Of a stretch of DNA of 64,000 nt, positions 29,680-52,260 are shown in pieces. The translations under genes were made by a program, and so were the position numbers. Under the pieces are notes generated by a model. That model worked only from the letters and a program-made list of their open reading frames with translations. It was not told the origin of the DNA and made no database searches. Within the stretch, counting starts at the first letter, position 1; each line of letters opens with the position of its first letter. The stretch is from an uncultured delta proteobacterium. GTDB lineage: Bacteria > Bdellovibrionota_C > UBA2361 > CAIXSY01. The stretch covers positions 634-64,633 of the forward strand of contig CAIXSY010000024.1 of assembly GCA_903922175.1 (NCBI GenBank). The letters are read 5' to 3'.

Positions 29680-30774
29680 TTATTGCTGATCTGGAATAAC
29701 GTGAGGTGACCCCCGGCTACTCAGGTGACCCCACGCCAGAGCGAGCAAGGGGACGGCTGCATACCAACGCTCGTACCACGCGAAGAACAAAAAGGGCATT
29801 GAGAGCGCAAGGCCAAGCAAGAGGAGGTGATACACATACCTTCTGACAATTTTTGTAAGATATTCGGCGATGGAGCAGTAAGTTGGAAAGAGAAGCACCA
29901 GGGAATGGCTCCACATATAGGGAGCTATGGTTAAGGAAAGAGGGACAATTACCTGCAAGAAATTCTTTGTCGAGAATCGGGTGCGTAATCCGTAAGAAAA
30001 TGCGACTAGGCAACCGATTGTTGGTAGCAGGAGCGACAAATTGCCCCCCCATAGGCTGCGAAATACTTGAGACAACGATGCTCCGGGGAGTGAAAAACCC
30101 GAATCGAAGGTGCCGTGCCTGAGGAAGGAGAGGGTAATTCCAGGCACAAGTGCCTCGCCGAGAAGGAGCTGGAGGGAACCTCCAGCTATGGCCCCTCCAA
30201 TTAAGGCAACGCTCTTGTTGTGCGCCGTGGCCCCCAAAAGATAGGCATATACCCCCATAAAGAGGTTCGGCTTACATAGTGAGAGCGAAAGCACTACACC
30301 TGCCCAAAATAATCTCTGTTGCAGCAATAGGAGAGAGGCGCCGAGGAGTGTTAACAGCAGAAGGAAGTTGTATTGCCCCCAATATATGTTAGACCAATAC
30401 CACGGGAACAGGAGGACGAGAACGAGAGCTGCAGCATTGGACTTTTTTTTATGATGTGGAGCAAGTAGTCCCTGAATCCGAGTCAAGATGATGGCACTTG
30501 CCGCAGCAATTATGCAGGGCCATGCTACTCGAGCGGCCGAAAAAGGAATCAGTGAAAGAATGGCCCATAGCCACAGCGCCCAGGGCGGAGTAAGTACGGC
30601 ATGGGCGTACTCATCCGATGGCCACCCCAATTGATACATGAGCGATGCCAGGGCATTTTGATCATAGACATCCTGTCCATGACGGGCAAGAAATCCACTA
30701 GCCCATAGGTAAAAGACGTCATACCCGAATACGTCTTGGACGGTGTGGGTAGCGGTAGGGTCGAGGATGTCCAT
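29680..30774 (-). CDS. GT87/DUF2029-like GT-C membrane glycosyltransferase
   Basis: 364 aa and polytopic. The first loop is DVFGYDVFYLWASGFLARHGQDVYD. The C-terminal PYMWSHSLVLLFP block is shared with 44604..45860 and with the fragment at 39320..39793. Confidence 0.7.
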   Translation of the reverse strand: MDILDPTATHTVQDVFGYDVFYLWASGFLARHGQDVYDQNALASLMYQLGWPSDEYAHAVLTPPWALWLWAILSLIPFSAARVAWPCIIAAASAIILTRIQGLLAPHHKKKSNAAALVLVLLFPWYWSNIYWGQYNFLLLLTLLGASLLLLQQRLFWAGVVLSLSLCKPNLFMGVYAYLLGATAHNKSVALIGGAIAGGSLQLLLGEALVPGITLSFLRHGTFDSGFSLPGASLSQVFRSLWGGNLSLLLPTIGCLVAFSYGLRTRFSTKNFLQVIVPLSLTIAPYMWSHSLVLLFPTYCSIAEYLTKIVRRYVYHLLLLGLALSMPFLFFAWYERWYAAVPLLALAWGHLSSRGSPHVIPDQQ

Positions 30775-37389: not shown

Positions 37390-38799
37390 ATGAATCAGAA
37401 ACCATGTGTGCAATACGCTGCGGCGGGGATAACGCTAGTCTTTATGGCAGGGGCAGTGCTCCGCATCCTCTCAGGAGTCCTGAGCGAGTTTTCAATTGAT
37501 GAAGTTTGGTCACTCTATTTTGCCGAGCACTCCAAATCGATTTTGGAGATACTTTTTTTTACCAAGCATGATAACAATCATCCGCTTAACACCATTCTCC
37601 TCCGCTATCTGAGTATTTGGAACAGCCCGCTGCTCTATCGTTTACCCGCGCTTCTCACTGGCCTACTTGTACCGGCTGCGGGATGGTATCTGGCGAAAGG
37701 GTGCCGTACCGCTGCGCGCACGTTGTTTGCTCTTTTTCTGGCAAGCTCTTTCCTTCTTATCTTCTACAGCAGCGAAGCACGCGGGTATTCACTCATGCTT
37801 TTTTTTGGACTTCTTGCCCTTATTTGTTTGCGGGACTATGCGGACTCCCCCAAAGCTAGGAAGGCCTTGCTCTATGCGCTCTGCACGGTTCTGGCAGTAT
37901 TATCACACTTTTCATACCTCCGCTTTTTCTTCAGTAGCGTGTTGCTGTCATTTGTTTGTCTAAACCACGTGCCGATAGGGGATCGCGTGCGGCGATTGGC
38001 TGGAATTCATGCGCTTCCTGCGCTGTTGCTTGCGCTGATATATTTTTTTTCTGTGCGTGGGATGTATGTGGCTGGTGGTCAGTTCGGAAGTAGCGGCGAG
38101 GTGCTGCTTAATACCCTCGCCCTTGTCTTGGGTGGTACGCCATTGGAGATCGCCTGCACGAGCTTGCAGACACGTGCCAATAGTGTGTTGGCCATAGTCG
38201 CTATAGCTACGGCACTTGCAGGAACCTATGTTTTGGCACGCGGGCAGCGCAGTGTTCTTTTGGCGATTCTCGTCGCTCTGTTCGTTGTGCCGGTTACCTC
38301 CGGTCTTTTGATTGAGGATCTGGCGCTCTTCCCGCGCTACTTCCTGCCGGAGGTTGTCTTGCTCTATTTCGTGGTCGCGGCGCTGTGTGCTGAGTTGTGG
38401 AGTTCGAAGTCGCTGGGTAAAATTCTTGCGGGTATCGTTGCTAGTGTGATTGTATTCCTAAACTTCTCCCAAGGTATTCGGTTCGTCGAATATGGACGTG
38501 GTGGGGTTTTAACGGCGCTGCGCACTATTGCGGAAGCGCCTCAAGACTCTCCCCAGCGCGTGGCGGCACTTGACAATGGGCGTCTTGGCTGGTTGGTCGA
38601 CTATTACCTGGTGCATGCAAAATTGCCAGGCGTTCTGCGAAATGAGAACGAGCCGATGTGGATTCTCGGCACATCAAGAAGCTCCTGTCCTTCGCCGATT
38701 ACGCAGCTGCGACACCACTCAGAGAACTATGTACTTGTAACGTCCATTCCCTTCTGGGGGCTGTCTGGAGAGGAGACAATGCTCTACCGACGTGAGTGA
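37390..38799 (+). CDS. GT-C-fold membrane glycosyltransferase (GT39/PMT_2-like), intact copy of a duplicated gene
   Basis: 469 aa. The first-loop motif is EFSIDEVWSLYFAE. Its last ~320 codons are repeated at 39830..40793. Confidence 0.65.
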   Translation: MNQKPCVQYAAAGITLVFMAGAVLRILSGVLSEFSIDEVWSLYFAEHSKSILEILFFTKHDNNHPLNTILLRYLSIWNSPLLYRLPALLTGLLVPAAGWYLAKGCRTAARTLFALFLASSFLLIFYSSEARGYSLMLFFGLLALICLRDYADSPKARKALLYALCTVLAVLSHFSYLRFFFSSVLLSFVCLNHVPIGDRVRRLAGIHALPALLLALIYFFSVRGMYVAGGQFGSSGEVLLNTLALVLGGTPLEIACTSLQTRANSVLAIVAIATALAGTYVLARGQRSVLLAILVALFVVPVTSGLLIEDLALFPRYFLPEVVLLYFVVAALCAELWSSKSLGKILAGIVASVIVFLNFSQGIRFVEYGRGGVLTALRTIAEAPQDSPQRVAALDNGRLGWLVDYYLVHAKLPGVLRNENEPMWILGTSRSSCPSPITQLRHHSENYVLVTSIPFWGLSGEETMLYRRE

Positions 38800-38910
38800 T
38801 GAAAATATAGTCCTTCATTTGTACTCACAGGCTTGTTTTAGCTGCCGGTAAGTTGGTATGTTCATAGTAGATAAATTGATCCTGTATACCGCAAACTAGT
38901 GGAGGCGCAA

Positions 38911-39087
38911 ATGAGTGAAATCAAAGAGATTATTAAAAAAGATCACTCTCAGGAAGAGGAGAAAGCGGCAACCTTAGTCGAATATGCCTTACTTGTTGCC
39001 TTGATTGCTGTTGTTTGCATCGTTTCGGTTCGCATAATAGGCCAGAAAACCTCACAGAAATTTTCAATGTTGGCGAGCTCTCTTTAG
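38911..39087 (+). CDS. flp: Flp/Fap-family type IVb pilin prepeptide
   Basis: 58 aa from ATG 38911, with GGAGG 5 nt upstream. A charged leader is followed by ATLVEYALLVALIAVVCIVSV....TSQKFSMLASSL, matching the Flp motif (xEY + hydrophobic helix + S/T-rich tail). Confidence 0.7.
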   Translation: MSEIKEIIKKDHSQEEEKAATLVEYALLVALIAVVCIVSVRIIGQKTSQKFSMLASSL

Positions 39088-39319
39088 CCTGCGGCGATTG
39101 ACTCAGAGGGCTCGTAATCGCAAACAAGCTCTCAGCATTGTAATTCCTGCTCTTGTGGCATCCACATATCCACGCGATGTGCCTGATTGGGGCGCTCTTG
39201 TCTGATGGCTCATCTATTCCCCTACAGGTCGACCCAGAGAAGCTCTGTCGGCAGTTCCCGCAGAGAGTTCTCGCAGCGCTTGTGGAAAAATAGCCGGAAG
39301 GCATGCGCCCCAATACTGT

Positions 39320-39793
39320 TCAGGCTTCGAATCGGCACAAAATCTTACTTCGAATGAGGACATACAGCATGGCAAGAAAGATGATGCCGCAGACGACAAA
39401 ACTCCAGCCGGGGACGAAGAAATGATAGGCTAAGGCTAGCGGGATCGTTGCCTGTAACGCGAGGAGAGTGATTAGTGGTCCGCTCCAAATTGATCTCTGC
39501 GAGCGCAAGGCCTGCGCGCTATAGCCACATAGGTATAGGAAGGGGAGACATAACAGGTAGTCGTGCCCCCAGGTGAATGGCGATAAGGTGCAGGCAATCG
39601 GAAGCAGGCATAGGCTGACGACGGTCGGAGGCCATTGCCGTTTCTTGGTCCCTAGCCAGATAGCGCATACGAGGATGGCAATAAAGGGGAGGAATCGCAG
39701 CAGTCCCGCGTCATCGGGGCTAACTGCAGCTAAGACTGAGGGGATACTGGCATTGGTCATGAAGGTTGGAGGAGCGCTGCGGTAAAGCACCAC
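39320..39793 (-). pseudogene. 3' fragment of a GT87/DUF2029-like glycosyltransferase paralogue
   Basis: PFTWGHDYLLCLPFL and FFVPGWSFVV align with PNAWGHDFILLAP and FWVPGYSFAL at the C terminus of 44604..45860. Only ~150 aa are present, versus 360-420 in the intact paralogues. Confidence 0.5.
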
Positions 39794-39829
39794 GAACTCC
39801 TCAACTATGCGCGGTCTTAATCCGACGGC

Positions 39830-40793
39830 ATTATGCGGCTGCCCCTGGAGCTAGGAAGGCCTTCCTCTATGCGCTCTGTACGGTGCGGCAGTATTATCAC
39901 ACTATTCATATCTCCGCTTTTTCTTCAGTAGCGTGTTGCTGTCATTCGTTTGCCTAAACCACGTACCGATAGGGAATCGCGTGCGGCGACTAGTTGGGAG
40001 GCCTGCGCTTCCTGCGCTGCTGCTTACGTTGATCTATTTTCTTTCCGTGCGCGGGATGTATGTAGCTGGTGGTCAGTTCGGAAGTAGCGGCGAGGTGCTG
40101 CTTAATACCCTCGCCCTCGTCTTGGGTGGTACGCCATTGGGGCTCGCCTGCACGAGCTTGCAGGCACGTGCCAATAGTATGTTGGCCATAGTCGCCATAG
40201 GTACGGCACTTGCAGGAACCTATGTTTTGACACGCGGACAACGCAGTGTTCCTTTAGATCTTCTCGTCACTCTGTTCGTCGTGCCGGTTGCCTCCGGTCT
40301 TTTGATTGAGAATCTTGCGATCTTCCCTCGCTACTTCCTGCCGGAGGTTGTTTTGCTCTATTTCGTGGCAGCGACGCTTTGCGCTGAGCTATGGTCCTCG
40401 ACGGCGCTTGGTCGGTTGCTGGCAGGCCTCCTCGTTAGTGTCCTCATCTTCTTTAACCTTGTGCAAGGTGCTAATTTTCTTGTCGATGGACGTGGTGGAG
40501 TTTTAGCGGCGCTGCGCACGGTTGCAAGAGCATCGCAGGAGATCCCCACGCAGGTGGGGGTTCTTGATAGTGAGAGCCTAAGCTGGCTGGTCAACTATTA
40601 TCTGGCGCATGCCCTCATAGAGCAGGTTAAGCGAGATGACCGAGATCCAACTTGGCTGCTGACGGCATCTCGCAGTCCTTATCTGGCGCCAGGCTCGGTT
40701 TTGCAGAGCGGACCTCGGCTCTATGTTCTTAATGCCATGTTCTCCTTCGGCGGGTTGTCGGGAGAGCAGGTAAGGCTCTACCGGCGTAAATGA
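39830..40793 (+). pseudogene. 5'-truncated, frameshifted duplicate of the GT39-like gene 37390..38799
   Basis: ARKAFLYALCTV (track ORF 39766..39957) and then VLSHYSYLRFFFSSVLLSFVCLNHVPIGN (another frame, ORF 39933..40793) follow copy 1 (ARKALLYALCTVLAVLSHFSYLRFFFSSVLLSFVCLNHVPIGD). A 1-nt deletion is seen (GTTCTGGCA versus GTGCGGCA). The first ~150 codons, including the acidic loop motif, are absent. Confidence 0.7.
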
Positions 40794-40955: not shown

Positions 40956-42005
40956 GTGTTGTCGTCTATGGATAGTGCAGATTCATCTCTACTTAACGCT
41001 AAGCGCGTTCTGATTACGGGCGGAACTGGATCGTTTGGACATTTCATGGTCCAGCGTTTGCTGACGACCAGTATAGCGGAAGTCCGCGTCTTTAGCCGAG
41101 ATGAGAAAAAGCAGTTCGACATGCGCAAGCAATTCGCCGCTTCACCCCAGGTTACCTTTATGATTGGCGATGTCCGGGATGCTGCTCAACTTGACCGAGC
41201 TTGTAGTGGTATTGACATGGTTTTTCATGCAGCAGCCTTGAAGCAAGTTCCCAGCTGCGAGCTCTTCCCCGGCGAGGCTCTGAAGACGAACCTGATCGGA
41301 GCGCAGAATTTGATTGGTGCAGCCATCGCCAATAACGTTGAGCGGGTAGTCGCCGTTAGTACCGATAAGGCTGTGAAGCCGGTGAATGTCATGGGGATGA
41401 CCAAAGCCATCCAAGAGCGTTTAATTATCAATGCCAACCAGCTTTCCCATAATCAGAAGACCCGCTTTTGCTGTGTGCGCTATGGCAACGTCATGAACTC
41501 TCGCGGTTCGGTGCTTCCGCTTTTTCGTCGTTTGTTGCGAGATGGAAAGCCTTTGACCGTGACACACCCAGAGATGACTCGTTTTATGCTTACCTTTGGG
41601 GATGCAATAGATCTCGTTATCTATGCGCTTGTGCATATGCGCGGCGGCGAACTCTTCGTGAAAAAAGCGCCAGCCGCCTACATGGTTGATGTTGCCGCTG
41701 TGTTTGCCGAGATGCATGGGGCACCGGCACAGCCGATTTCGTTTATTGGGCAGTTCGCTGGTGAGAAACTCCATGAAATATTGTTATCCGATGAAGAGCT
41801 TATTCGGAGTAAGGATTGTGGCGACTACTTCGTGGTCGCGCCATGGTCAATGCCGCCGCATAGCGAGTCCCTCGGTGGTGTAAATAAAGAGTATGGCTCG
41901 CGCGATAATATCGTAGGACGTGAGGTGCTGCGGGGGCTCCTTGAGCGATCCGATCGGGAGGTGCGCACCATGCAGTATGAAGATAGTTATTTTGTTGTCT
42001 CATGA
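40956..42005 (+). CDS. UDP-N-acetylglucosamine 4,6-dehydratase-type SDR (PseB/FlaA1/PglF-like)
   Basis: 349 aa. Blocks are VLITGGTGSFGH, VFSRDEKKQ, FHAAALKQVPSCE and STDKAVKPVNVMGMTKA. The start is GTG 40956 or ATG 40968. Confidence 0.85.
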   Translation: MLSSMDSADSSLLNAKRVLITGGTGSFGHFMVQRLLTTSIAEVRVFSRDEKKQFDMRKQFAASPQVTFMIGDVRDAAQLDRACSGIDMVFHAAALKQVPSCELFPGEALKTNLIGAQNLIGAAIANNVERVVAVSTDKAVKPVNVMGMTKAIQERLIINANQLSHNQKTRFCCVRYGNVMNSRGSVLPLFRRLLRDGKPLTVTHPEMTRFMLTFGDAIDLVIYALVHMRGGELFVKKAPAAYMVDVAAVFAEMHGAPAQPISFIGQFAGEKLHEILLSDEELIRSKDCGDYFVVAPWSMPPHSESLGGVNKEYGSRDNIVGREVLRGLLERSDREVRTMQYEDSYFVVS

Positions 42006-42628
42006 TTGATTTTATTATAATGGGGGCGGGCGGGGCGGGGCGTACCGTTCTTGGCACCTGTGCGGATATATCTTCACGTGTAGGCTTTCTTGATGATAAT
42101 TGTGCAGCCACGGTGGTAAACGGCGCCCCGGTTCTTGGAACCACCAACGAGCGAGGCCGTTTGCGAGGTTGCAAATATATCATCGCTTTCGGTAGCCGCT
42201 TCCAGCGTGAACGCAGTAGCGTCTTTGCGACGATGCAGGCAGAAGGATATACTTTTTTTAACGCAATCAATTCACAGGCCTATGTCGATCGCTTCGCCGT
42301 GGTTGGGCAGGGTGTCTTCGTTGGCGCGCAATCAGCGATATTACCGAATGCCAATGTCGGCAATAACTGCTACATCTGTGTAGGTTGTAGCGTCGATCAT
42401 GATTGCGTTGTGGAATGCGGTACCTATCTTGCTCCGGGCGTACATCTTGCTGGTGGAGTTCATGTCGGGGAGAGCGTTTTTATTGGAATAGGGGCCGTGG
42501 TCCTTCCTTTGGTGCGGGTTGGCGCAGGTGCTGTTATTGGTGCCGGAGCCGTCGTTATGCACGATGTCGTACCCGGAGCCGTAGTCGCTGGGGTGCCGGC
42601 GCGAACTTTGCATAAGAAGGAGAGCTGA
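42002..42628 (+). CDS. NeuD/PglD-family hexapeptide-repeat sugar N-acetyltransferase
   Basis: 208 aa. The N-terminal Rossmann-like segment IIMGAGGAGR is followed by left-handed beta-helix repeats (VGNNCYICVGCSVDHDCVVECGTYLAPGVHLAGGVHVGESVFIGIGAVV). It shares an ATGA overlap with the dehydratase gene. Confidence 0.85.
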   Translation: MIDFIIMGAGGAGRTVLGTCADISSRVGFLDDNCAATVVNGAPVLGTTNERGRLRGCKYIIAFGSRFQRERSSVFATMQAEGYTFFNAINSQAYVDRFAVVGQGVFVGAQSAILPNANVGNNCYICVGCSVDHDCVVECGTYLAPGVHLAGGVHVGESVFIGIGAVVLPLVRVGAGAVIGAGAVVMHDVVPGAVVAGVPARTLHKKES

Positions 42629-42632
42629 GCGA

Positions 42633-43754
42633 ATGGATACAATCCCAATTATGCGACCGTGGCTGCCAAGTTTTGAGACACTTGCCCCGATGCTGCGGGA
42701 GGTGGTTGAAAATGGGTTGATAACGAACGGCAAGTACGTTCGGCTCTTCGAAGAGCGTGTGGCAGCATACCTTGGTGTGCGCAACTGTGTTGCGGTGAGC
42801 AGTGGAACACTGGCACTGACCATCGCCATGGGCATGCTGGAGCTTACGGGTGAAGTTATCATGCCCAGCTTCACGTTTACGGCGACGGCACATGCGGCCA
42901 TCTGGAATAAACTTGATGTTGTCCTCGTTGATATAGACCCTGAAACGTTTAACATCAATCCAGACTTAATTGAGAAGCTCATCTCTCCCCGCACCAGTGC
43001 CCTCGTTGCCGTGCATATGTTTGGGAATCCATGTGATGTCGACCGCCTGGCTGAGATCGCGAACAAGCATAAGCTGCGTTTAATTTACGATTCGGCTCAT
43101 GCGCTGGGCAGTCATTACCGGGCCAAGCCTCTAGCAGGTTTTGGCAATGTTGAGATATTCAGCTTGAGCCCGACGAAGATAGTGACAAGCGCGGAAGGGG
43201 GCCTTATTGCAACGAATGACGACGCGCTCGCCGAACGTTGTCGACTCGCTCGTAACCAGGGGGTGCATGCAGATTACGACTGTAGTCTTCTTGGTACGAA
43301 TGCCCGCATGTCCGAGCTGCATGGTATTCTCGGTCTTGGCAGCATGGATATTATTGATGCCGCCGTGGAGAAGAAAAATGTATTGGTGGGCTACTACAGG
43401 AAGCAACTTGAGGCTCATCCCGGAATAAGGCTACAGCGCCTATTAGATTCAACGGTTCGGTCTACCTATAAGGATTTTAATATTATTATTGACGCGAACA
43501 TATTCGGGATGAATCGCGATGGGGTAGCGCAGGTCTTGGCCGCACGTGGCATTGCTACAAAAAAGTATTATTCCCCGCCCGTTCATCGACAGAGCTTCTA
43601 CCGCACGCGGACGCAATGCTATGATGTCGCTCTCCCCGTGACGGACTTTGTATCTTCGAATACCCTTACCTTGCCGCTATTTCCGGAGATGACCTTCGCT
43701 GAGGTTGACCGGGTATGCCAAGCTGTGGCTGCCGCAGGTGAACATGTCGGATAG
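42633..43754 (+). CDS. DegT/DnrJ/EryC1/StrS-family PLP-dependent sugar aminotransferase (PglE/PseC/ArnB-like)
   Basis: 373 aa. Blocks are SGTLALTIA, YDSAHALG and the PLP-lysine block FSLSPTKIVTSAEGG. Confidence 0.9.
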   Translation: MDTIPIMRPWLPSFETLAPMLREVVENGLITNGKYVRLFEERVAAYLGVRNCVAVSSGTLALTIAMGMLELTGEVIMPSFTFTATAHAAIWNKLDVVLVDIDPETFNINPDLIEKLISPRTSALVAVHMFGNPCDVDRLAEIANKHKLRLIYDSAHALGSHYRAKPLAGFGNVEIFSLSPTKIVTSAEGGLIATNDDALAERCRLARNQGVHADYDCSLLGTNARMSELHGILGLGSMDIIDAAVEKKNVLVGYYRKQLEAHPGIRLQRLLDSTVRSTYKDFNIIIDANIFGMNRDGVAQVLAARGIATKKYYSPPVHRQSFYRTRTQCYDVALPVTDFVSSNTLTLPLFPEMTFAEVDRVCQAVAAAGEHVG

Positions 43755-43768
43755 TTGGAGAGGATTGC

Positions 43769-44587
43769 ATGGGTGTTTCTAAGTGGCTCTCTGCGCTGCG
43801 TCGGCCAGGTAATGTTTCAATAGCGCTTTTACCAGCGTACAATGAGGCTAAAAGTATAGCTTCGGTGTTGGATCGTGTGGCGCCACATGTTGACGCTATT
43901 CTTGTCGTTGATGATTGTTCTACGGATGAGACGGTGAACGTTGTACGTCAGTGGGGGCAGCAGCACGAAGGAGCATATCTTGTAGCGCTGCCGCACAATG
44001 TCGGGGCGTCGGGTGCCCTGCGCGCTGGGTATGTCTTGGTGAGCTATCTGCTGCGCATTGGAGTTCTTGCTCCCGACGATGTAATTGTGGAGCTCGATTC
44101 CGATGGGCAGCATGATCCCATCTATATTCCACAGCTGCTTCAATTCTTCCGAGAGGCAAAGCCGTTTGACGTGGTGTTGACGCGACGCGATTTTTCGGTG
44201 TATCCGGCTTACAAGCGCATCGGGAATTGTGGGCTTTCGTTGATTGCTTCGATATTTAGTGACTATTGGTATCGCGATGTGGAATCAAACTTTCGCGCAT
44301 CACGAGTACGAGTGTTTCCGGAACTTCTAAAATATTTCTCCGGATATCGTTATAGTGGCGCTTTTGAAGTCGGAATTATTCATGCGCTGTGTAAGCAGCG
44401 TATTCACAATGAGATGAGCGTTAACGTACCTTTTTATAGGCCAGGCGCAAGCGCGATAGATGGCTTGCATGTGTTGATGTTTGGACTTATTGCAATGCTG
44501 AGAGTTCGGCTGGGCATCGGCAGAGCCGACTTCCAGTCAGAGGAAGAACTGGTATTGAAGTACAGCGAGAGTATCGGGCCCGGATAG
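43769..44587 (+). CDS. GT2 glycosyltransferase of the polyprenyl-phosphate sugar synthase type (DPM1/GtrB/ArnC-like)
   Basis: 272 aa. Blocks are LPAYNEAKSI, VVDDCSTDET, LDSDGQHDP (compare MDADLQHPP in GtrB/ArnC) and a C-terminal hydrophobic segment LHVLMFGLIAML. Confidence 0.8.
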   Translation: MGVSKWLSALRRPGNVSIALLPAYNEAKSIASVLDRVAPHVDAILVVDDCSTDETVNVVRQWGQQHEGAYLVALPHNVGASGALRAGYVLVSYLLRIGVLAPDDVIVELDSDGQHDPIYIPQLLQFFREAKPFDVVLTRRDFSVYPAYKRIGNCGLSLIASIFSDYWYRDVESNFRASRVRVFPELLKYFSGYRYSGAFEVGIIHALCKQRIHNEMSVNVPFYRPGASAIDGLHVLMFGLIAMLRVRLGIGRADFQSEEELVLKYSESIGPG

Positions 44588-44603
44588 GTCGTCGCCCTGA
44601 TCG

Positions 44604-45860
44604 TCATTCGAGAGTTGTCGATTCTGATCTCTTGATGAGCTGCAAGGCATCTATGGAGACGATTTCCCTCAGTGGTTTTATAAGTGCAAGGCCCACGAGT
44701 ACTGGATAGAGGGCGAATGAATATCCCGGCACCCAGAAGCGTACTGCCAACAAGAGCACATAGCATTGGGCAAGCGAGAGGATAAGAAGGCTTGGCAGAT
44801 ACTGAGTTAGCGTCTTTTTATTCATCCATGCATATGAAGTAAGCCATGCACATGCGGGCGCGAGGAGGATGAAATCGTGTCCCCAAGCGTTGGGCGCAAA
44901 GGCGAGTGCCCAGGGTGAGAACAGGGCGAGCGCGGTGCCTATTCTGCGCACTCGCCACCCGACGCATGCGCCGACAACACATAACAGTAACTGAGGTGCG
45001 AGTAAAAGATAGAAGGGAATATGCCGAGGGAAGAGTCCGTGGACCAGACTTGGTAGTGATGCGCTCGTGATGACCATAGAACCACTCGCTTTCCAGTCGG
45101 CCAAAAAATGGGCGCCAATCTGCGGATCGAGGTACAAGGAGAGCAGCCCACACGCCAGAGTGACGAAAAAGGTAGTCGCGATGAGCGTCCAGTGACGTTG
45201 GTGGAGGGACCACATAACGACAATCGCCACAAGCGGTGCAGTAACGTGAGGTTTGAGGCAGAGAAAGAAGAGCGCTACGCCGGGCAGCACTCCTCCCTTT
45301 GTAGGACCGCAATGGTCAATCAAGATGGCCAGCGCAATCCACATAATCCATGAAGGCGACCCCCAATTGACGCCATGGATCAGCGTTCCAAAGGGCACGA
45401 TCAGCATCGCTACCCAGCCAGCAGAAAAAAGCGAGCCCACGTTGCCAAGTGCCTGTTGGCGAGATCGGATTGTGAGCCATAGGGCAGTTATAGTGCCCAT
45501 AAATTCTGTTAGGAGGAATATTGACTTGGCCGTGGGCAGGGTGAAGAGGCTAAAAATAAGAAAGGGCGTCAACATTGGTGGAAGCCAGAGGAGGCTGAGG
45601 CTAGGACCATTTGGAGACGGTCCCCGTGCAGGGAGGGCGTGTTCCACGAATGCGGTGCTGTCGGGCAGCGCATAGGGGTTCTGACCGCTGCGAAGCAGGT
45701 GTGCTGCTTTCCATAAGCGTGTGAAATCAAAGAGTGACTGATCGGGAAGTAGATACCAGAGGAGGAGGGTGATAATGCTTATCGCCATCCATATGCATGG
45801 ATGAGAAGCGGACAGCTTGACGCATTTTTCCTGTGATTGGGTTGTTTGACTTAAGTTCAT
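44604..45860 (-). CDS. GT87/DUF2029-like GT-C membrane glycosyltransferase
   Basis: I prefer the ATG at 45860, because the track start 45950 overlaps the upstream gene by 68 nt. The first loop is LFDFTRLWKAAHLLRSGQNPY. Polytopic. Confidence 0.65.
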   Translation of the reverse strand: MNLSQTTQSQEKCVKLSASHPCIWMAISIITLLLWYLLPDQSLFDFTRLWKAAHLLRSGQNPYALPDSTAFVEHALPARGPSPNGPSLSLLWLPPMLTPFLIFSLFTLPTAKSIFLLTEFMGTITALWLTIRSRQQALGNVGSLFSAGWVAMLIVPFGTLIHGVNWGSPSWIMWIALAILIDHCGPTKGGVLPGVALFFLCLKPHVTAPLVAIVVMWSLHQRHWTLIATTFFVTLACGLLSLYLDPQIGAHFLADWKASGSMVITSASLPSLVHGLFPRHIPFYLLLAPQLLLCVVGACVGWRVRRIGTALALFSPWALAFAPNAWGHDFILLAPACAWLTSYAWMNKKTLTQYLPSLLILSLAQCYVLLLAVRFWVPGYSFALYPVLVGLALIKPLREIVSIDALQLIKRSESTTLE

Positions 45861-47236: not shown

Positions 47237-48718
47237 TTAACTTTGCCGTAATGTGAAAGGCATTGTTTCCCCCATTATGCCGCGGGCTCGAAGAAAAATT
47301 ACCATAATTAAAAGGTAGGTGCAGGCAATACCAATTTTTATAACAACTTGAAGCCCAGCTTCCACTTGGCTAAAAAAAGGCTCGATAAGGGGGAGTAGGC
47401 ATGGGAGAAGAGCAATGAACGATGCCTCGAATATCGGCCAGGGAAGCTTTATTAACTTTTGACAAAACAGATATACCGCTGCTACCAATAACATGTTGGC
47501 AAAGACGGCTCCTATTGCTGCTCCGAGGACAGATAGCGTGACAATTAGGACGAGTGTGGTTAGGAAAGAACTGGAGAGGGCGACAAGCGTTATCACCGCC
47601 AGTAGTCTGGATTTTTTCTGCTGATAGATAACGAGAACGAGATTCGAGTAAATTACCCAGAAAAGCATCGCTGAGAGAAGTACTGGAATAAATTGCGATG
47701 TTGAGTGAAATGTAGGTGAGGTTAGTAATGATACTAGATTGGGAGCAAAAAGGCCGAAAGCTATTGCCGCAGCTGAAAAGCCTGCTGTCGACAAGAGGAG
47801 CATGTCCGTAACCTGACGCCAATGTTTTGTTTGTGATAGCTGAAAGAATCGAGGGTTGTTCGATGCTGCAAATGAATTAACTCCCAGGTAGAACGGCTGT
47901 ACGATATTCACTGCTACAAAATAAATGCCGGCGGCCTGTGTGGTGGTAAAATAAGAAAGCGCTATCCGATCTCCGAATCCTTTAATCCAATGCGCAAAGT
48001 TATGAGGAACTAGGGGGGTGGAGAATGAGAGCAACTCTCTTATCTTGGGTAACTTCTCCCTGGTATCTACTCTTCCCCACCAGAGTGTCAACAGTGCGGT
48101 TATGCTGTTAGAAAAAACGGCAGCTAATATGATGCTTAATGCATTGCGCTGAAAATAGATGAGAAATAAAACCGCGAGAGTTGTTGTCAGTGTGAACTGG
48201 ATTCCTCCAAAAAGAGAATATTCTTTCATTCGCTCTGATGCACGAAGCTGCTCTTGTGATGTGACAAAGAAGCCCCCGAGTAGGCCAGCCATGAGGGAGA
48301 AAAAAAGATATGGGTATACGGGGATATTGAAAATAAGTTTGTTCTTTAGCCAGATGGTTAATAAGACAACCCCAGATGCCGCGAGGAGAAATACCCGCGA
48401 TTGAAAATGAAGCGCAACTCGCAAGATGCTGCCAGGAGGGGACTCGCTGCGAAGAGAGAGAAAATAAACAGCATCTGAAATACCCAAGAAAACCAAAAGC
48501 GGAGCTAGTGTCGATACGGAAGCGCAAACTGACACGATCCCCAGGTTGTATTGATCAAGATAGTAAGTATAAATAGGCAGGAGCGCGCAGCTAATTAGTT
48601 TTTGTGCAATCGAGACAAAAAAATAGAGGCTTGAGTTTGAAAATCGTTTATTCAACTTCGGGACTCCAGAGATGCACGGCGTCTTGTCATGGCGCGCTTG
48701 AACTAACCCTGCTTGCAA
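47237..48718 (-). CDS. Wzx-like oligosaccharide flippase (MOP/polysaccharide biosynthesis protein family)
   Basis: 493 aa with about 12-14 hydrophobic segments. The N-terminal FFVSIAQKLISCALLPIYTYYLDQYNLGIVSV is typical. The start is non-ATG (TTG 48718 or TTG ~48655). Confidence 0.7.
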   Translation of the reverse strand: MQAGLVQARHDKTPCISGVPKLNKRFSNSSLYFFVSIAQKLISCALLPIYTYYLDQYNLGIVSVCASVSTLAPLLVFLGISDAVYFLSLRSESPPGSILRVALHFQSRVFLLAASGVVLLTIWLKNKLIFNIPVYPYLFFSLMAGLLGGFFVTSQEQLRASERMKEYSLFGGIQFTLTTTLAVLFLIYFQRNALSIILAAVFSNSITALLTLWWGRVDTREKLPKIRELLSFSTPLVPHNFAHWIKGFGDRIALSYFTTTQAAGIYFVAVNIVQPFYLGVNSFAASNNPRFFQLSQTKHWRQVTDMLLLSTAGFSAAAIAFGLFAPNLVSLLTSPTFHSTSQFIPVLLSAMLFWVIYSNLVLVIYQQKKSRLLAVITLVALSSSFLTTLVLIVTLSVLGAAIGAVFANMLLVAAVYLFCQKLIKLPWPIFEASFIALLPCLLPLIEPFFSQVEAGLQVVIKIGIACTYLLIMVIFLRARGIMGETMPFTLRQS

Positions 48719-49634
48719 GGTGTAACCTCTTCTCTAGGCGCACCCTGAGCGTTCTCCATAATAGAATGAGCATAGATTGAGAAGGATGAAAAAATATTTC
48801 TTGCAATAGTCCGCATAGTCCCCATGCAGCTCCTTCGAAGAAAGGTTTTCTCTCATTTTTTGGTGGCAACTCACGATAATTCGAATATAGGGCACTCAAG
48901 TAGTTTTCGGCATTTGCTGGGCCACTGAGGGTTAGTCCAGCGAATTTATAGCGAGTAATCGGAAAAACATCGATATATTTGTAGGCGGGGCGCTGGAGTG
49001 GGGTGCCAGCGCTTTTGGTATCAGCAGCCCATTCATGAAATGCGTATGTAACTCGGCAGTTGTTCGGTTCGCTTGTCAGGTAATCGAATTTCGTCAAGTA
49101 ATTTTCGGTGGTAAGCAATTCCAAAAAAATAGAAGTCTCCTCCCGCAGGCCAGCAGAAATGCCATTTAGAGCGGATTTGGTACGATTTCTGTCCTCATCT
49201 ATGAAGCCTGGTGAGTTGGGGAGAATTTTTGCATTTGAGATATCCAGCCCAAAGTGTTGGAATGAATGTCCGAGTCGGCGAAATCCATCCAGCGAGTTCA
49301 AAGACATGTGCATGTGGTCCAGGACATTTCGTGGAGATCTTGCATTGTGGGATATAAAAAAACGAGGATGCCATCTTGTTTCATCGATCAAGACCTTCCT
49401 TAATCTTTCGAAGCTTGCGGCAAGCACGCAAACGTCAGCATCATCATCCCAGGGAATAAATCCCTGATGGCGTATGGCACCAAGGAGCGTACCGCCATCC
49501 ATCCAGTAGTTTATAGCATGCTTTTTGCAAACCCAATCAAGGAATGAAAGTAAATCAAGGAGAACGAGCTGATAACGAAGGAGCCCAGGGTAGCTCTGAT
49601 ATTCGCAAGTGTGATCCGCGGGCTCGCTTATCAT
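48687..49634 (-). CDS. LicD-family phosphotransferase (CDP-alcohol to glycan transfer)
   Basis: 315 aa. The hallmark block is YWMDGGTLLGAIRHQGFIPWDDDADVCV. It shares an ATGA overlap with the upstream methyltransferase gene. Confidence 0.85.
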   Translation of the reverse strand: MISEPADHTCEYQSYPGLLRYQLVLLDLLSFLDWVCKKHAINYWMDGGTLLGAIRHQGFIPWDDDADVCVLAASFERLRKVLIDETRWHPRFFISHNARSPRNVLDHMHMSLNSLDGFRRLGHSFQHFGLDISNAKILPNSPGFIDEDRNRTKSALNGISAGLREETSIFLELLTTENYLTKFDYLTSEPNNCRVTYAFHEWAADTKSAGTPLQRPAYKYIDVFPITRYKFAGLTLSGPANAENYLSALYSNYRELPPKNERKPFFEGAAWGLCGLLQEIFFHPSQSMLILLWRTLRVRLEKRLHLASRVSSSAP

Positions 49635-50272
49635 GCTTTCTCGCCAAGTATGGCATAGTAGTGAGTATTATGCCATTTGTTGAACTTTGCCGGATATATA
49701 TCAAAGGCTTCGACGTGCCGAAATCCCAGTTCTTCCAACAGTGAGATCTCCTGTTGGAGCTTCCTATATTCTGCGAAATAATGCTGGCCGACCTCTTTCG
49801 ACGGACCCTCGACAACAACATTCTCTATCACGCCGAATTGATTCTTAACTATGAATTTTCCGCCCTTCTTTAGCATTCTTAGGCAGTTGCGGTATATCTC
49901 CTGCACCTCTGCTCGGTTAAAGTGGTGAAGTACTCCAAATGCGGTGATGAGGCTAAACGCCTTGTCTACAATAAAGTCTTTCAAGTCCGCATTAATTATC
50001 GTTATATTGGGACGCCTGACGATGAAATTTGAAAACTCCGGAAGAAATTCGACGCAAGTAATTTCACTGACGAGTTGAGCAATCTGGTTCACAATAAGTC
50101 CGGTGCCACTTCCTAGATCGAGCACGGTGCTGTCTGTGCATAGGTATGGCAGCAGAAAATTTACATCAAGCTGCGGAAGCGCGTGAGCATCGTTTTTTAG
50201 TTTAATATCCTCAGGAACTTTAATCTGACCCGATAGCCATCGGTAGAATTCCAAACTCTGCTTATTCTCCAT
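49631..50272 (-). CDS. Class I SAM-dependent methyltransferase
   Basis: 213 aa. Motif I is VLDLGSGTGLIVNQ, and the post-I/II blocks are VEFLPEF and ITAFGVLHHF. Confidence 0.8.
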   Translation of the reverse strand: MENKQSLEFYRWLSGQIKVPEDIKLKNDAHALPQLDVNFLLPYLCTDSTVLDLGSGTGLIVNQIAQLVSEITCVEFLPEFSNFIVRRPNITIINADLKDFIVDKAFSLITAFGVLHHFNRAEVQEIYRNCLRMLKKGGKFIVKNQFGVIENVVVEGPSKEVGQHYFAEYRKLQQEISLLEELGFRHVEAFDIYPAKFNKWHNTHYYAILGEKA

Positions 50273-50975
50273 TGCAACTCCCTGACGCCGACCTAACTAG
50301 GTATCTCGCGAGTTCTGTGCACGAGTCTACGAGGATCGTTGGTAAATTATGGGTTCTCGGATCGAATTTAACGCTCAATTCAGTACAGCCTAAAATAATA
50401 ATATCGGGGCGATATTTGTCGTACACCAATCCCATTACTGCAGCCAGCTGCTCTGTTTGTGCCGTCGACGGAAAATCCTTTATGCTATAAATAATCTTCT
50501 CTACGAGCAATTGAATGTCCTCATCGTGGTTGAGGTATTCCATCCCAAGCGCATTAATGAAAGGTTTGTAGGTTTGCTTTTTATAAGTAATCGGCGCGCC
50601 TAAAACCATAACAGAGCGCGAGTGATCTCGAAATTGCTTCAGCGCGGTGCACGTCCTTTCAATAATATTGATGACAGGGACAGCTACTTGACGGCGAATA
50701 TCGTCAATAAAAAAACAAGCGCTGTTACAAGGGATATAAACTTCATCGACCGGGTAAGATTGAAGTCTCTTTAGAGAGTCCACCATTCCAGGTACCGGGC
50801 TAGCTTCGCCGTATAAGATGTGCCGCGTGCGGCTTGGGATGTGTGGGTTGACGTCGAGTATTATCCGCAGGTGATCGCGATCAGTCGTAGCTGGAGTCAG
50901 GGCGAGGACACGCTTATAAAACTCAAACGAGGCATACGGCCCCATCCCCCCTAGAATTCCAATAGTCTTGGTCAT
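50262..50975 (-). CDS. Aspartate/glutamate-family amino-acid racemase
   Basis: 237 aa. IGILGGMGPYAS is present, and both catalytic Cys blocks are present (IPCNSA and LGCTELS). Confidence 0.85.
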   Translation of the reverse strand: MTKTIGILGGMGPYASFEFYKRVLALTPATTDRDHLRIILDVNPHIPSRTRHILYGEASPVPGMVDSLKRLQSYPVDEVYIPCNSACFFIDDIRRQVAVPVINIIERTCTALKQFRDHSRSVMVLGAPITYKKQTYKPFINALGMEYLNHDEDIQLLVEKIIYSIKDFPSTAQTEQLAAVMGLVYDKYRPDIIILGCTELSVKFDPRTHNLPTILVDSCTELARYLVRSASGSCNGE

Positions 50976-51619
50976 CGTCTGCCGACTGAGTTTTTTAGAA
51001 AAAGTTTAGCTTTTGAAAAATCTCTCATGGTGTCAATATCCATAGCTCGTACGCACACGCCACGGATTGGTAGAAAACTTGCAATATGCTGATAAACGTG
51101 AAGCTTTTTATGAGCAGCGAGATGCTCACGTCGTAAGCATGCCGGCCCTAGCCATTCGTATTCGCCGCTTCTTCGAGTAAAGGAAATTACGTGCTCTTTG
51201 TCGTCGAGCCTTACATATACGGGTTCCTCCGAAGTTTTTTTTGTGAAGCCGATGAATTCCTCTGACATGGCCAGTAATCTCTTCATGTCGTCGGGGTGTA
51301 CAAGGAGGTCTCCATCGATAGAGAAAACCAAATCATGTCCGTACTGCGCGCCTAGGTAAAGACTTGCCAGGGTTTTGGTGTTGAAATAATCGTGATTATA
51401 GATGAAAAGGATGTCGTTCCTTACTTGTCGAACCACTTCTATTAGTCTGTCCGCTTCGAACCCAACTACAATACGAACATCTTCAACTTCTTTGAGCATA
51501 TCAAGTTGCCAGTGAATAATCGGACGGCCCGAAATCTCGATCAGTGATTTGGTATGACCAAGTCCCAGGCGGCTTCCGATCCCGGCACAGGTTATAACAA
51601 CTGTTTTAGGAATGTGCAT
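50972..51619 (-). CDS. Nucleotidyltransferase (LicC/IspD/MobA-like, probable cytidylyltransferase for a phospho-alcohol)
   Basis: 215 aa. The N-terminal VVITCAGIGSRLGLGHTKSLIEISGRPII is the G-x-G-x-R...K nucleotidyltransferase loop. Confidence 0.75.
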   Translation of the reverse strand: MHIPKTVVITCAGIGSRLGLGHTKSLIEISGRPIIHWQLDMLKEVEDVRIVVGFEADRLIEVVRQVRNDILFIYNHDYFNTKTLASLYLGAQYGHDLVFSIDGDLLVHPDDMKRLLAMSEEFIGFTKKTSEEPVYVRLDDKEHVISFTRRSGEYEWLGPACLRREHLAAHKKLHVYQHIASFLPIRGVCVRAMDIDTMRDFSKAKLFLKNSVGRR

Positions 51620-52260
51620 AATCGCTCGGCAGAATATACAGCATGTGTAGCGACGCTCCTGACCGTTCGGGAGGGGGGATGAACTCCACCGAAGGCGATC
51701 GAAATATCGGACACCATCATCGCTTGCGCATCATTGTTTCCCTCCCCAATAAAAACTACGCGCTCTGCACTACGGCGGCACTGGGCCGTCACCTGCTCTT
51801 TATTTATGATCTGGTCAAGCCGAATCACGTGGTCGTCTTTTACGCACGCCGTTGATACAAAATAAGCACAGCCTAGCCTTTTCAAGAGAGGAACAACCCA
51901 GCAATCTAGGTTTTGGGTAATAACTCGGCAATTTCTCGGGTGTGTGACGATGAACGACGCTATATGGGAATTTAATTTGGTTTTTGTAATCAAGTCTCTT
52001 ATCTGAGAGACTGGGAGTTTTCCTAAGACGTTCACTCTTTTGATGAAGGACTCAATGAAAGGTACTTTTCCCTCTATCGTATCTTTGGTGAGCGCTTCAA
52101 TATCTTCTTTAATGCCCGGGAAATTCTTAGCAATTAGAGGAAGTGTCTCCTCCTCGGTGACCGTTCCGTCAAGGTCGAAAAGAAAAAGAGTCTCTGCTAT
52201 CTTTGTTTTAAAGCTACTTGCCACATTGTTGAAGATACCCTTCTTGGAAAAACAAAACAA
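51592..52260 (-). CDS. HAD-superfamily hydrolase, subfamily IB (phosphoserine-phosphatase-like)
   Basis: Motif I is LFDLDGTVT and motif IV is GEGNNDAQAM. The start is non-ATG (TTG 52260 or GTG 52224). Confidence 0.8.
   Translation of the reverse strand: MFCFSKKGIFNNVASSFKTKIAETLFLFDLDGTVTEEETLPLIAKNFPGIKEDIEALTKDTIEGKVPFIESFIKRVNVLGKLPVSQIRDLITKTKLNSHIASFIVTHPRNCRVITQNLDCWVVPLLKRLGCAYFVSTACVKDDHVIRLDQIINKEQVTAQCRRSAERVVFIGEGNNDAQAMMVSDISIAFGGVHPPSRTVRSVATHAVYSAERLCTFLKQLL

Follow-up and report, generated by a model that had tools for sequence, protein, structure and literature searches.

A stretch of 64,000 nucleotides (nt) from an uncultured delta proteobacterium (contig CAIXSY010000024.1 of assembly GCA_903922175.1), referred to here as the window, contains a cassette of four plus-strand genes that probably supplies a lipid-linked amino sugar to the outer face of the cytoplasmic membrane. 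Judged from sequence comparison and modelled folds, the cassette would make a diacetamido-trideoxyhexose activated with uridine diphosphate (UDP), its glycosyltransferase of family GT2 would load this sugar onto a polyprenyl monophosphate, and a glycosyltransferase of the GT-C type would use it outside the membrane. This reading is considered probable, with appreciable doubt.

The proposed route begins with the dehydratase, which would convert UDP-N-acetylglucosamine (UDP-GlcNAc) to a UDP-4-keto-6-deoxy-N-acetylhexosamine (HexNAc). The DegT-type enzyme would then aminate C4 and the PglD-type enzyme would N-acetylate the new amine, as suggested by family membership in all three cases. Fold, profile matches and synteny predict that the GT2 transfers the sugar from its UDP carrier onto a polyprenyl monophosphate (undecaprenyl or another), in the manner of ArnC, GtrB and DPM1 with their respective sugars, and that it works peripherally or singly anchored, lacking the hairpin of two helices seen in ArnC and GtrB. 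A flippase would turn over the lipid-linked monosaccharide, and a GT-C enzyme outside the cytoplasmic membrane would decorate an envelope glycan or protein with it. The GT-C might be encoded by a convergent GT87-like gene, by a PMT_2-like gene lying 2 kb upstream or by one of the many other GT-C genes of the island.

The families named for the four packed genes in a first-pass annotation of the window are borne out by the coordinates of the open reading frames (ORFs) and by Pfam and NCBIfam matches (Table 1). From the first gene to the fourth, the spacing consists of an ATGA overlap of 4 nt, a gap of 4 nt and a gap of 14 nt. Because of this overlap and these gaps of 4-14 nt, one transcription unit is assigned to the four cassette genes, which form a single operon-like unit. 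The gap between the end of the GT2 gene and that of the minus-strand GT87-like gene (44604), annotated as 17 nt, measures 16 nt. Scans for promoters and terminators yielded counts not above those in shuffled sequence. The annotated LDSDGQHDP motif of the GT2 was found as ELDSDGQHDP at residues 107-117.

Class of the GT2

The GT2 is a member of a small, sharply bounded subfamily of proteins with 250-280 amino acids (aa) and 33-64% identity. In an alignment of 18 members, D110, D112, G113, Q114 and H115 of the DSDGQH motif (residues 110-115) are invariant, as are R140, K149, D170 and S173. When the profile of this alignment was compared with the PDB, the seven best sequences were all polyprenyl-phosphate glycosyltransferases (GtrB, ArnC and dolichyl-phosphate mannose synthase, DPMS), with E-values of 2.5e-13 for GtrB, 2.9e-13 for ArnC and 2.5e-11 for the DPMS of P. 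furiosus (PfDPMS). The generic GT2s that followed were aligned over the N-terminal nucleotide-binding half only. For the AlphaFold2 model, which has a predicted local distance difference test score (pLDDT) of 91.7, the top 13 Foldseek matches were ArnC and GtrB, with E-values of 3e-12 to 6e-10 and template modelling (TM) scores of 0.65-0.68. The best NCBIfam matches are likewise all lipid-phosphate glycosyltransferases, namely PpgS, AglJ, ArnC, PgfS and a dolichyl-phosphate-hexose transferase.

The class motif DADLQ[DNH] is found as DADLQD in GtrB, DADLQN in ArnC and DADLQH in PfDPMS (10.1101/2025.01.29.634835), and the DSDGQH of the GT2 fits the extended DXD motif D-x-D-x-Q of these enzymes. 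In ArnC, R128 and R137 have been assigned to the binding of undecaprenyl phosphate (10.1101/2025.01.29.634835). The invariant R140 of the GT2 pairs with ArnC R128 in the sequence alignment, and the invariant K149 lies nine residues past R140, like ArnC R137, an equivalence given by spacing only.

Linkage of the GT2 to the cassette

The strongest evidence comes from comparing loci. Besides the window, eight independent loci encode a GT2 at least 49% identical to that of the cassette (L081, L083, L084, L086, L087, L096, L097 and L098), and cassette genes directly adjoin the GT2 gene in all nine. The control set, collected with the same motif patterns, comprised 80 loci whose DPM1-like GT2s are more distant (at most 41% identity). 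None of them carries the cassette, and a DegT gene lies within 10 kb of the GT2 in a single one. This difference between nine of nine and none of 80 indicates that the GT2 subfamily is specific to this sugar pathway. Homologues of the dehydratase (48-71% identity), the acetyltransferase (36-54%) and the aminotransferase (43-68%) are encoded in four of the eight further loci. L084 has two short-chain dehydrogenase/reductase enzymes of another type in place of the dehydratase, L081 has no adjoining aminotransferase gene, and L096 and L098 end at contig ends.

This linkage bears on the alternative that the GT2 is a polyprenyl-phosphate glycosyltransferase for a common sugar (glucose, N-acetylglucosamine or mannose), like GtrB, GacI or DPM1, and that the diacetamido sugar is used by another transferase. 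The characterised relatives at this distance do all use common sugars or 4-formamido-4-deoxyarabinose, and roles are hard to assign in a genome that encodes six or more further GT2 paralogues of the DPM1-like type. However, the subfamily is found only beside 4-amino-sugar genes, while the more distant subfamilies lack them, and the spacing within the cassette indicates a single transcription unit. In addition, no GT2 of the window type was found in 60 genomes of the same order, which argues for an enzyme that travels with the cassette and against a housekeeping synthase. A common sugar is therefore an improbable substrate. The named sources of the GT2 relatives are Eisenbacteria and Vicinamibacterales, and on these comparisons the cassette appears to move laterally as one unit.

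The first-pass annotation had proposed delivery of the sugar as a polyprenyl monophosphate to a GT-C enzyme, with the GT87-like gene as partner, and not through a PglC-type route. The monophosphate part of this proposal is supported by the profile and fold matches, by the synteny in all nine loci and by the lack of a Bac_transf phosphoglycosyl transferase gene in the window, the only two of the genome being located on contigs C7 and C341. Its choice of partner is not supported, as described below.

More distant relatives differ in their surroundings. A GT2 branch with 38-41% identity, seen in L001 (4563-19783) and L085 (4860-19950), adjoins pyruvate:ferredoxin oxidoreductase genes and lies between genes for TMEM260-like GT-C proteins and giant (at least 2000 aa) DUF2298 membrane proteins; one of the two genomes belongs to candidate division FCPU426. 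In L002 (9974-11983), from a high-GC Chloroflexi metagenome-assembled genome, a 38%-identical GT2 is part of a 669-aa frame with about 400 extra C-terminal residues, which may reflect a fusion or an ORF that was called too long.

Identity of the sugar

In the first-pass annotation, the dehydratase was described as PseB/PglF-like and the sugar as bacillosamine-like. The phylogenetic placement does not support this label. The maximum-likelihood tree places the GT2-linked dehydratases in a clade of their own (support 93/91) that is sister to FnlA/CapE (87/94), followed by PseB, with PglF outside, so that the enzyme groups with the inverting FnlA/CapE/PseB dehydratases. The bit scores against PDB sequences follow the same order, with 309 for FnlA (4j2o), 288 for CapE, 243 for PseB and 140 for PglF. 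The NCBIfam models for FnlA/CapE (TIGR04130) and PseB (TIGR03589) were matched with 350.9 and 334.2 bits, compared to cut-offs of 730 and 407.75. The dehydratase has the triad T-x9-M-x3-K (STDKAVKPVNVMGMTK) of CapE and FnlA, with a methionine where PseB has its catalytic tyrosine. The clade is sister to FnlA/CapE and not nested in it, and the cassette contains no reductase or 2-epimerase gene.

Since the dehydratase clade is sister to the inverting FnlA/CapE and not to PglF, the bacillosamine (D-gluco) configuration is not established. The SpsM protein of B. subtilis is CapE-like and has the same triad, yet it is retaining and PglF-like by genetic complementation (PMC7439481). For this reason, retention at C5 cannot be read from the dehydratase sequence.

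The matches of the two other enzymes do not decide between the configurations. The acetyltransferase, with PglD_N and Hexapep domains, exceeds the TIGR03570 cut-off (181.4 compared to 160.8 bits), and its best PDB matches are the acetyltransferase domain of Neisseria PglB (4m98), PerB and VioB, which act on 4-amino-4,6-dideoxy sugars. The aminotransferase is full length, covering positions 8-359 of the 360 in the Pfam profile DegT_DnrJ_EryC1. Its best PDB matches are DesI (2po3) and perosamine synthases; PseC (124 bits), PglE (111 bits) and ArnB were also matched, and it remains under the equivalog cut-offs of DesI, PseC, ArnB and LegC.

In three of the related loci (L084, L086 and L087), a gene for a stand-alone CapF-type cupin separates the aminotransferase gene from that of the GT2; the window has none. 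CapF is a 3-epimerase, and the cupin probably acts as one in these loci, giving another stereoisomer of the sugar. Its presence points again to chemistry of the L series. Based on the families of the enzymes, the predicted product is best stated as UDP-2,4-diacetamido-2,4,6-trideoxyhexose. An L-series sugar would be at least as likely as D-bacillosamine, so that a bacillosamine-like product is possible and not favoured.

Another reading takes the cassette as the first steps of pseudaminic acid synthesis (PseB, PseC and an acetyltransferase), with an incidental GT2. In its favour, the dehydratase is a member of the inverting supergroup and matches the PseB model with 334 bits. Nevertheless, this score is under the PseB cut-off, the catalytic tyrosine is replaced by methionine, and the acetyltransferase is of the PglD type, whereas PseH is a GNAT enzyme. 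True PseB (526 bits, cut-off 408), PseC (471, cut-off 423.5) and PseI (488, cut-off 340) are encoded together on contig C267. Because of these genes the pseudaminic acid route is ruled out for the cassette on sequence grounds, and a link of the dehydratase to that route, which the first-pass annotation had raised against its own proposal, was checked and fails; the chance that this reading is correct is minute.

On contig C267 (L091, 396-9303), the PseB, PseC and PseI genes adjoin genes for a DltA-like adenylation enzyme, a formyltransferase-like protein and an AAC(3)-like acetyltransferase, a combination that hints at pseudaminic acid derivatised with unusual N-acyl groups; directly after PseI, the contig comes to its end. 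A membrane-anchored UDP-GlcNAc dehydratase of the PglF/WbpM type with about 640 aa (270 bits to PglF) is encoded on contig C133 (9035-10963, minus strand). Together with the window type and the PseB of C267, the genome thus holds three dehydratase paralogues of different types.

GT-C enzymes as candidate partners

In L083, L084 and L097, a gene for a GT-C of the PMT/PMT_2 type directly follows the GT2 gene on the same strand, with an overlap of 4 nt in L097. L081 has several PMT_2 genes upstream of the GT2 gene and a weak YfhO match downstream. In the window, at least five GT-C-like genes are found in addition to the convergent GT87-like gene, and 17970-21106 and 29680-30774 also count as candidate partners.

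The description of the convergent gene as GT87-like was upheld. Its product alone reaches 22.9 bits on Pfam GT87, for which the gathering score is 25; 19 of the 29 members of its family match this Pfam entry, with a best E-value of 4e-14. The other GT87 gene of the window (29680-30774) matches the family profile with a probability of 99.4%. For the model of the protein (pLDDT 89.7), Foldseek ranked PimE first (9dm5; E-value 5e-4, TM score 0.56-0.60), followed by glycosylphosphatidylinositol (GPI) mannosyltransferase I, ArnT and AftA. D45, located in the first outer loop, does not vary within the family and may correspond to the catalytic aspartate of PimE. A word-based homologue search with the protein returned only the protein itself, and an exhaustive HMMER search of 1.8 billion representative proteins found 45 relatives. 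The most likely start of the gene is 45860, which gives 418 aa, the length on record in the protein collection. Taken together, sequence and model identify it as a genuine, very divergent GT-C of GT87-like type.

As a conserved and dedicated partner of the cassette, this gene was rejected. A scan with the family profile found GT87-like genes in none of eight related loci (L001, L002, L081 and L083-L087), and in the window translational coupling ties the gene to the opposite operon, where it comes last and overlaps the end of an Acyl_transf_3 gene. Its pairing with the cassette in the window is plausible.

The alternative candidate upstream of the cassette is a membrane protein without a Pfam match of its own and probably a PMT_2-like GT-C. 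D37 and E38 are invariant in its family as a DE motif, a few homologues match PMT_2 (PF13231), and a match to PTPS_related is weak. The family profile found no match in the PDB, and the contigs of the closest homologues are short or uninformative with regard to gene context. A search of the genome for orthologues of the PMT-type partners of the relatives gave one weak match only, on contig C13.

Directly upstream of the dehydratase gene, L081 (7023-8345) and L097 (3-971) encode a protein of about 440 aa without Pfam match, 62% identical between the two loci. No relation to the GT87-like or PMT_2-like families of the window was found by BLASTP or hhalign. A role as the missing flippase or as a further GT-C is conceivable.

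Points against the lipid-monophosphate route

Several observations weigh against the proposed loading of a polyprenyl monophosphate for a GT-C enzyme. The first group concerns the GT2 itself. Its next-best fold match is GpgS, which has a soluble acceptor (TM score about 0.56), and it is far under every NCBIfam equivalog cut-off, for example with 43.8 bits on PpgS (NF058614; cut-off 370) and 33.4 on ArnC (NF007986; cut-off 529). At their C-terminus, ArnC and GtrB have two transmembrane helices and PfDPMS has four. The GT2 lacks the two-helix hairpin of ArnC and GtrB, and its single hydrophobic helix (229-248) is marginal, with a mean Kyte-Doolittle value of 1.67 and values of 1.0-1.5 in many relatives. 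PpgS and human and other eukaryotic DPM1 likewise lack membrane helices, so that the hairpin is not universal in the class. From sequence and model, the GT2 is best described as a putative lipid-phosphate-class enzyme that is anchored peripherally or by one helix.

The second group concerns the missing partners. No GT-C gene was seen in the sequence available for four of the nine loci (L086, L087, L096 and L098), and the absence of GT87-like genes from the related loci has to be counted here as well. The whole genome holds at least 26 PMT_2-like genes, which makes nearness to a GT-C less telling. The L087 cassette is located in a cluster of the usual Wzy type that includes a small Bac_transf gene resembling PglC, and its GT2 could serve cytoplasmic assembly. 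No gene of the GtrA family (GtrA_DPMS_TM) was found in the genome, which is 94% complete, so that lipid-linked monosaccharides are not flipped by the GtrA type. ArnE/F-type genes did not turn up near the cassette either, although no search was aimed at them. A dedicated flippase of the GtrA, GtcA or ArnE/F type adjoining GT2 and GT-C was thus not found, and the only recognisable candidate near the cassette is the Wzx-type protein of the next operon; that this protein flips the lipid-linked sugar is speculation.

Under a rival explanation, the GT2 is a conventional cytoplasmic glycosyltransferase that adds the diacetamido sugar to an oligosaccharide linked to undecaprenyl diphosphate or to another hydroxyl, export follows by Wzx/Wzy or an ABC transporter, and the GT-C genes are unrelated neighbours. 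The lack of the membrane hairpin, the Wzx-type gene in the neighbouring operon and the abundance of GT-C genes are in line with it, as are Wzy_C and ABC-transporter genes in L083 and the setting of the L087 cassette amid Wzy_C, other glycosyltransferase and Bac_transf genes. However, lipid-phosphate enzymes rank first in both the profile and the fold searches, with generic GT2s matching the nucleotide-binding half only, and both the basic pair R140/K149 and the extended DxDxQH motif are in keeping with the lipid-phosphate class. Moreover, translational coupling links the GT2 gene to a GT-C gene in L097, and the two genes are direct neighbours in L083 and L084. A cytoplasmic role of this kind is considered unlikely, though it is the most probable of the rivals.

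A proposed portable donor module

Under the lipid-monophosphate reading, the comparison of loci suggests that cassette and GT2 act together as a portable module for the donor, the GT-C family with which it is paired varying from lineage to lineage. A bolder form of this proposal is that of a laterally mobile cartridge for a polyprenyl-monophosphate-linked 2,4-diacetamido-2,4,6-trideoxyhexose that may well belong to the L series. Such a donor would represent an undescribed class of GT-C donor and would be used by unrelated GT-C partners: GT87-like or PMT_2-like in the window and PMT-like elsewhere. We put this forward tentatively, as a proposal somewhat more likely to be wrong than right.

By analogy with the Arn pathway, the 4-N-acetyl group might take the role of the Arn N-formyl group, and a deacylase acting after loading would expose a cationic amine on the surface. 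Candidate deacylase genes are a CN_hydrolase gene in L096, a PIG-L gene in L087 and a Polysacc_deac_1 gene in L086. The CN_hydrolase gene of L096 (2720-3532; 270 aa) abuts the end of the GT2 gene, and its product could be a deacylase of the lipid-linked sugar, like ArnD. Its place next to the GT2 gene also echoes mycobacterial Ppm1, which has a fused Lnt-like domain.

Surroundings of the cassette

The upstream edge of the cassette bears a rearrangement scar, which fits a lateral insertion. It comprises a shortened duplicate of the PMT_2-like candidate gene and the remnant of a third GT87-like gene (Table 1). A small Flp-pilin-like ORF (38899-39087) is found within the scar region (37390-40793).

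The opposite operon encodes, in this order, HAD, cytidylyltransferase, Asp/Glu racemase, methyltransferase, LicD, Wzx, acyltransferase (Acyl_transf_3) and GT87-like proteins. The genes from HAD to LicD at its start (48687-52260, minus strand) may form a decoration module activated by cytidine diphosphate (CDP), perhaps acting on the same glycan as the cassette.

Table 1. Genes of the cassette and its surroundings in the window, and CapF-type cupins of related loci (locus coordinates), with predicted functions
Feature	Location	Strand	Length	Remarks
UDP-GlcNAc 4,6-dehydratase, short, soluble (Polysacc_synt_2), predicted	40956..42005	+	349 aa	Pfam 327 bits
PglD/NeuD/VioB-type left-handed beta-helix N-acetyltransferase (4-amino sugar), predicted	42002..42628	+	208 aa	TIGR03570
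DegT/DnrJ/EryC1 sugar 4-aminotransferase, predicted	42633..43754	+	373 aa	Pfam 342 bits
GT2 of a rare subfamily, predicted polyprenyl-phosphate glycosyltransferase	43769..44587	+	272 aa	Glycos_transf_2 64.7 bits
Divergent GT87-like GT-C, candidate user of the lipid-linked sugar	44604..45860	-	418 aa	Last gene of the opposite operon
Membrane protein without Pfam match, probable PMT_2-like GT-C, alternative partner candidate	37390..38799	+	469 aa	
C-terminal remnant of a third GT87-like gene	39323..39850	-		Positions 224-385 of the family hidden Markov model, 118 bits; 51% identical to P0125
Shortened duplicate of the C-terminal 286 aa of 37390-38799	39933..40793	+		68% identity; 162 nt upstream of the cassette
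Wzx-type (Polysacc_synt) flippase, neighbouring operon	47237..48718	-		Only recognisable flippase candidate near the cassette
CapF-type cupins (PF14667)	L084 9603-10004; L086 9572-9973; L087 9845-10261		133-138 aa	91-110 bits

Comparison with known systems

The logic of the proposed route is already known from the Arn pathway and from three-component extracytoplasmic glycosylation (PMC11127046). In the Arn pathway, which modifies lipid A, a 4-keto sugar nucleotide is likewise aminated, the amine is N-acylated and an ArnC-fold GT2 loads undecaprenyl phosphate for a GT-C. By fold, the cassette GT2 matches ArnC best, and ArnB is among the PDB matches of the aminotransferase. In contrast, the predicted sugar of the cassette is a 6-deoxy-HexNAc and that of the Arn pathway a pentose, and a PglD-type acetyltransferase is found where Arn has a formyltransferase (ArnA). 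No ArnD-like deacylase is encoded in the window, and no flippase of the ArnE/F type was seen there, as mentioned above without an aimed search. The GT2 lacks the two membrane helices of ArnC, scoring 33 bits against its cut-off of 529, and the GT-C candidates in the window are GT87- or PMT_2-like and not ArnT (GT83).

Three-component systems such as GtrA/GtrB/GtrC, CsbB/GtcA/YfhO, GacI/GacL and PpgS/Rv3779 have been reviewed (PMC11127046). They share with the cassette a polyprenyl-phosphate GT2 and a GT-C in a surface-glycan locus, and GtrB tops the profile search with the GT2 subfamily. They differ in their GtrA-family flippase, absent from this genome, in the transmembrane hairpin of the GT2, and in the origin of the donor, which would come from a dedicated three-enzyme cassette here and comes from common UDP-glucose, UDP-GlcNAc or UDP-galactose pools there.

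The pgl pathway of Campylobacter and Neisseria (PglF, PglE, PglD, then PglC) has the same three chemical steps to UDP-2,4-diacetamido-2,4,6-trideoxyhexose, and the acetyltransferase domain of Neisseria PglB is the best PDB match of the cassette acetyltransferase. However, the cassette dehydratase is not of the PglF type (140 bits to PglF compared to 309 to FnlA, and outside the PglF clade), and the PglF-type gene of this genome is located separately on C133. A GT2 of the lipid-monophosphate class takes the place of PglC, and the window has no PglC-type phosphoglycosyl transferase gene. With the FnlA/CapE/WbjB route to UDP-L-N-acetylfucosamine, the cassette has in common a sister dehydratase with the same triad and, in L084, L086 and L087, the CapF-type cupin (PF14667). 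It lacks the CapF/FnlB reductase and the CapG/FnlC 2-epimerase, and its 4-keto intermediate would be aminated and acetylated instead of reduced.

For the convergent GT-C, the closest known enzyme is PimE, a GT87 mannosyltransferase dependent on polyprenyl-phosphate-mannose, with which it shares the best fold match, a family that matches Pfam GT87 and the loop aspartate D45. The differences are an identity of 17%, a score under the Pfam gathering score and the small number of relatives (45 among the 1.8 billion representative proteins).

To our knowledge, the lipid-monophosphate donors of GT-C enzymes comprise only common hexoses, HexNAc, 4-amino-4-deoxyarabinose, pentofuranoses and galactosamine, and 2,4-diacetamido-trideoxyhexoses enter glycans only by the diphosphate route, that is by PglC-type priming or ordinary cytoplasmic glycosyltransferases. 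A literature search found no paper tying sugars of the diacetylbacillosamine type to a route with GtrB/ArnC and a GT-C; its coverage was incomplete, so that this is absence of evidence only. As far as could be found, the new aspects are the sugar class, the PglD-type acetyltransferase at the formyltransferase step, the hairpin-less GT2 that is genetically tied to the cassette, and the interchangeable GT-C.

Implications

If the proposed route is correct, a dedicated polyprenyl-phosphate synthase for a diacetamido-trideoxyhexose would add a new kind of donor to those used by GT-C enzymes. The DSDGQHDP subfamily, with proteins of about 260 aa, would then be a sequence marker for such systems in uncultured bacteria, and glycoengineering would gain a compact module of four genes. 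The apparent joint travel of sugar cassette and synthase, with the GT-C partner being swapped, bears on the evolution of surface-glycan diversity.

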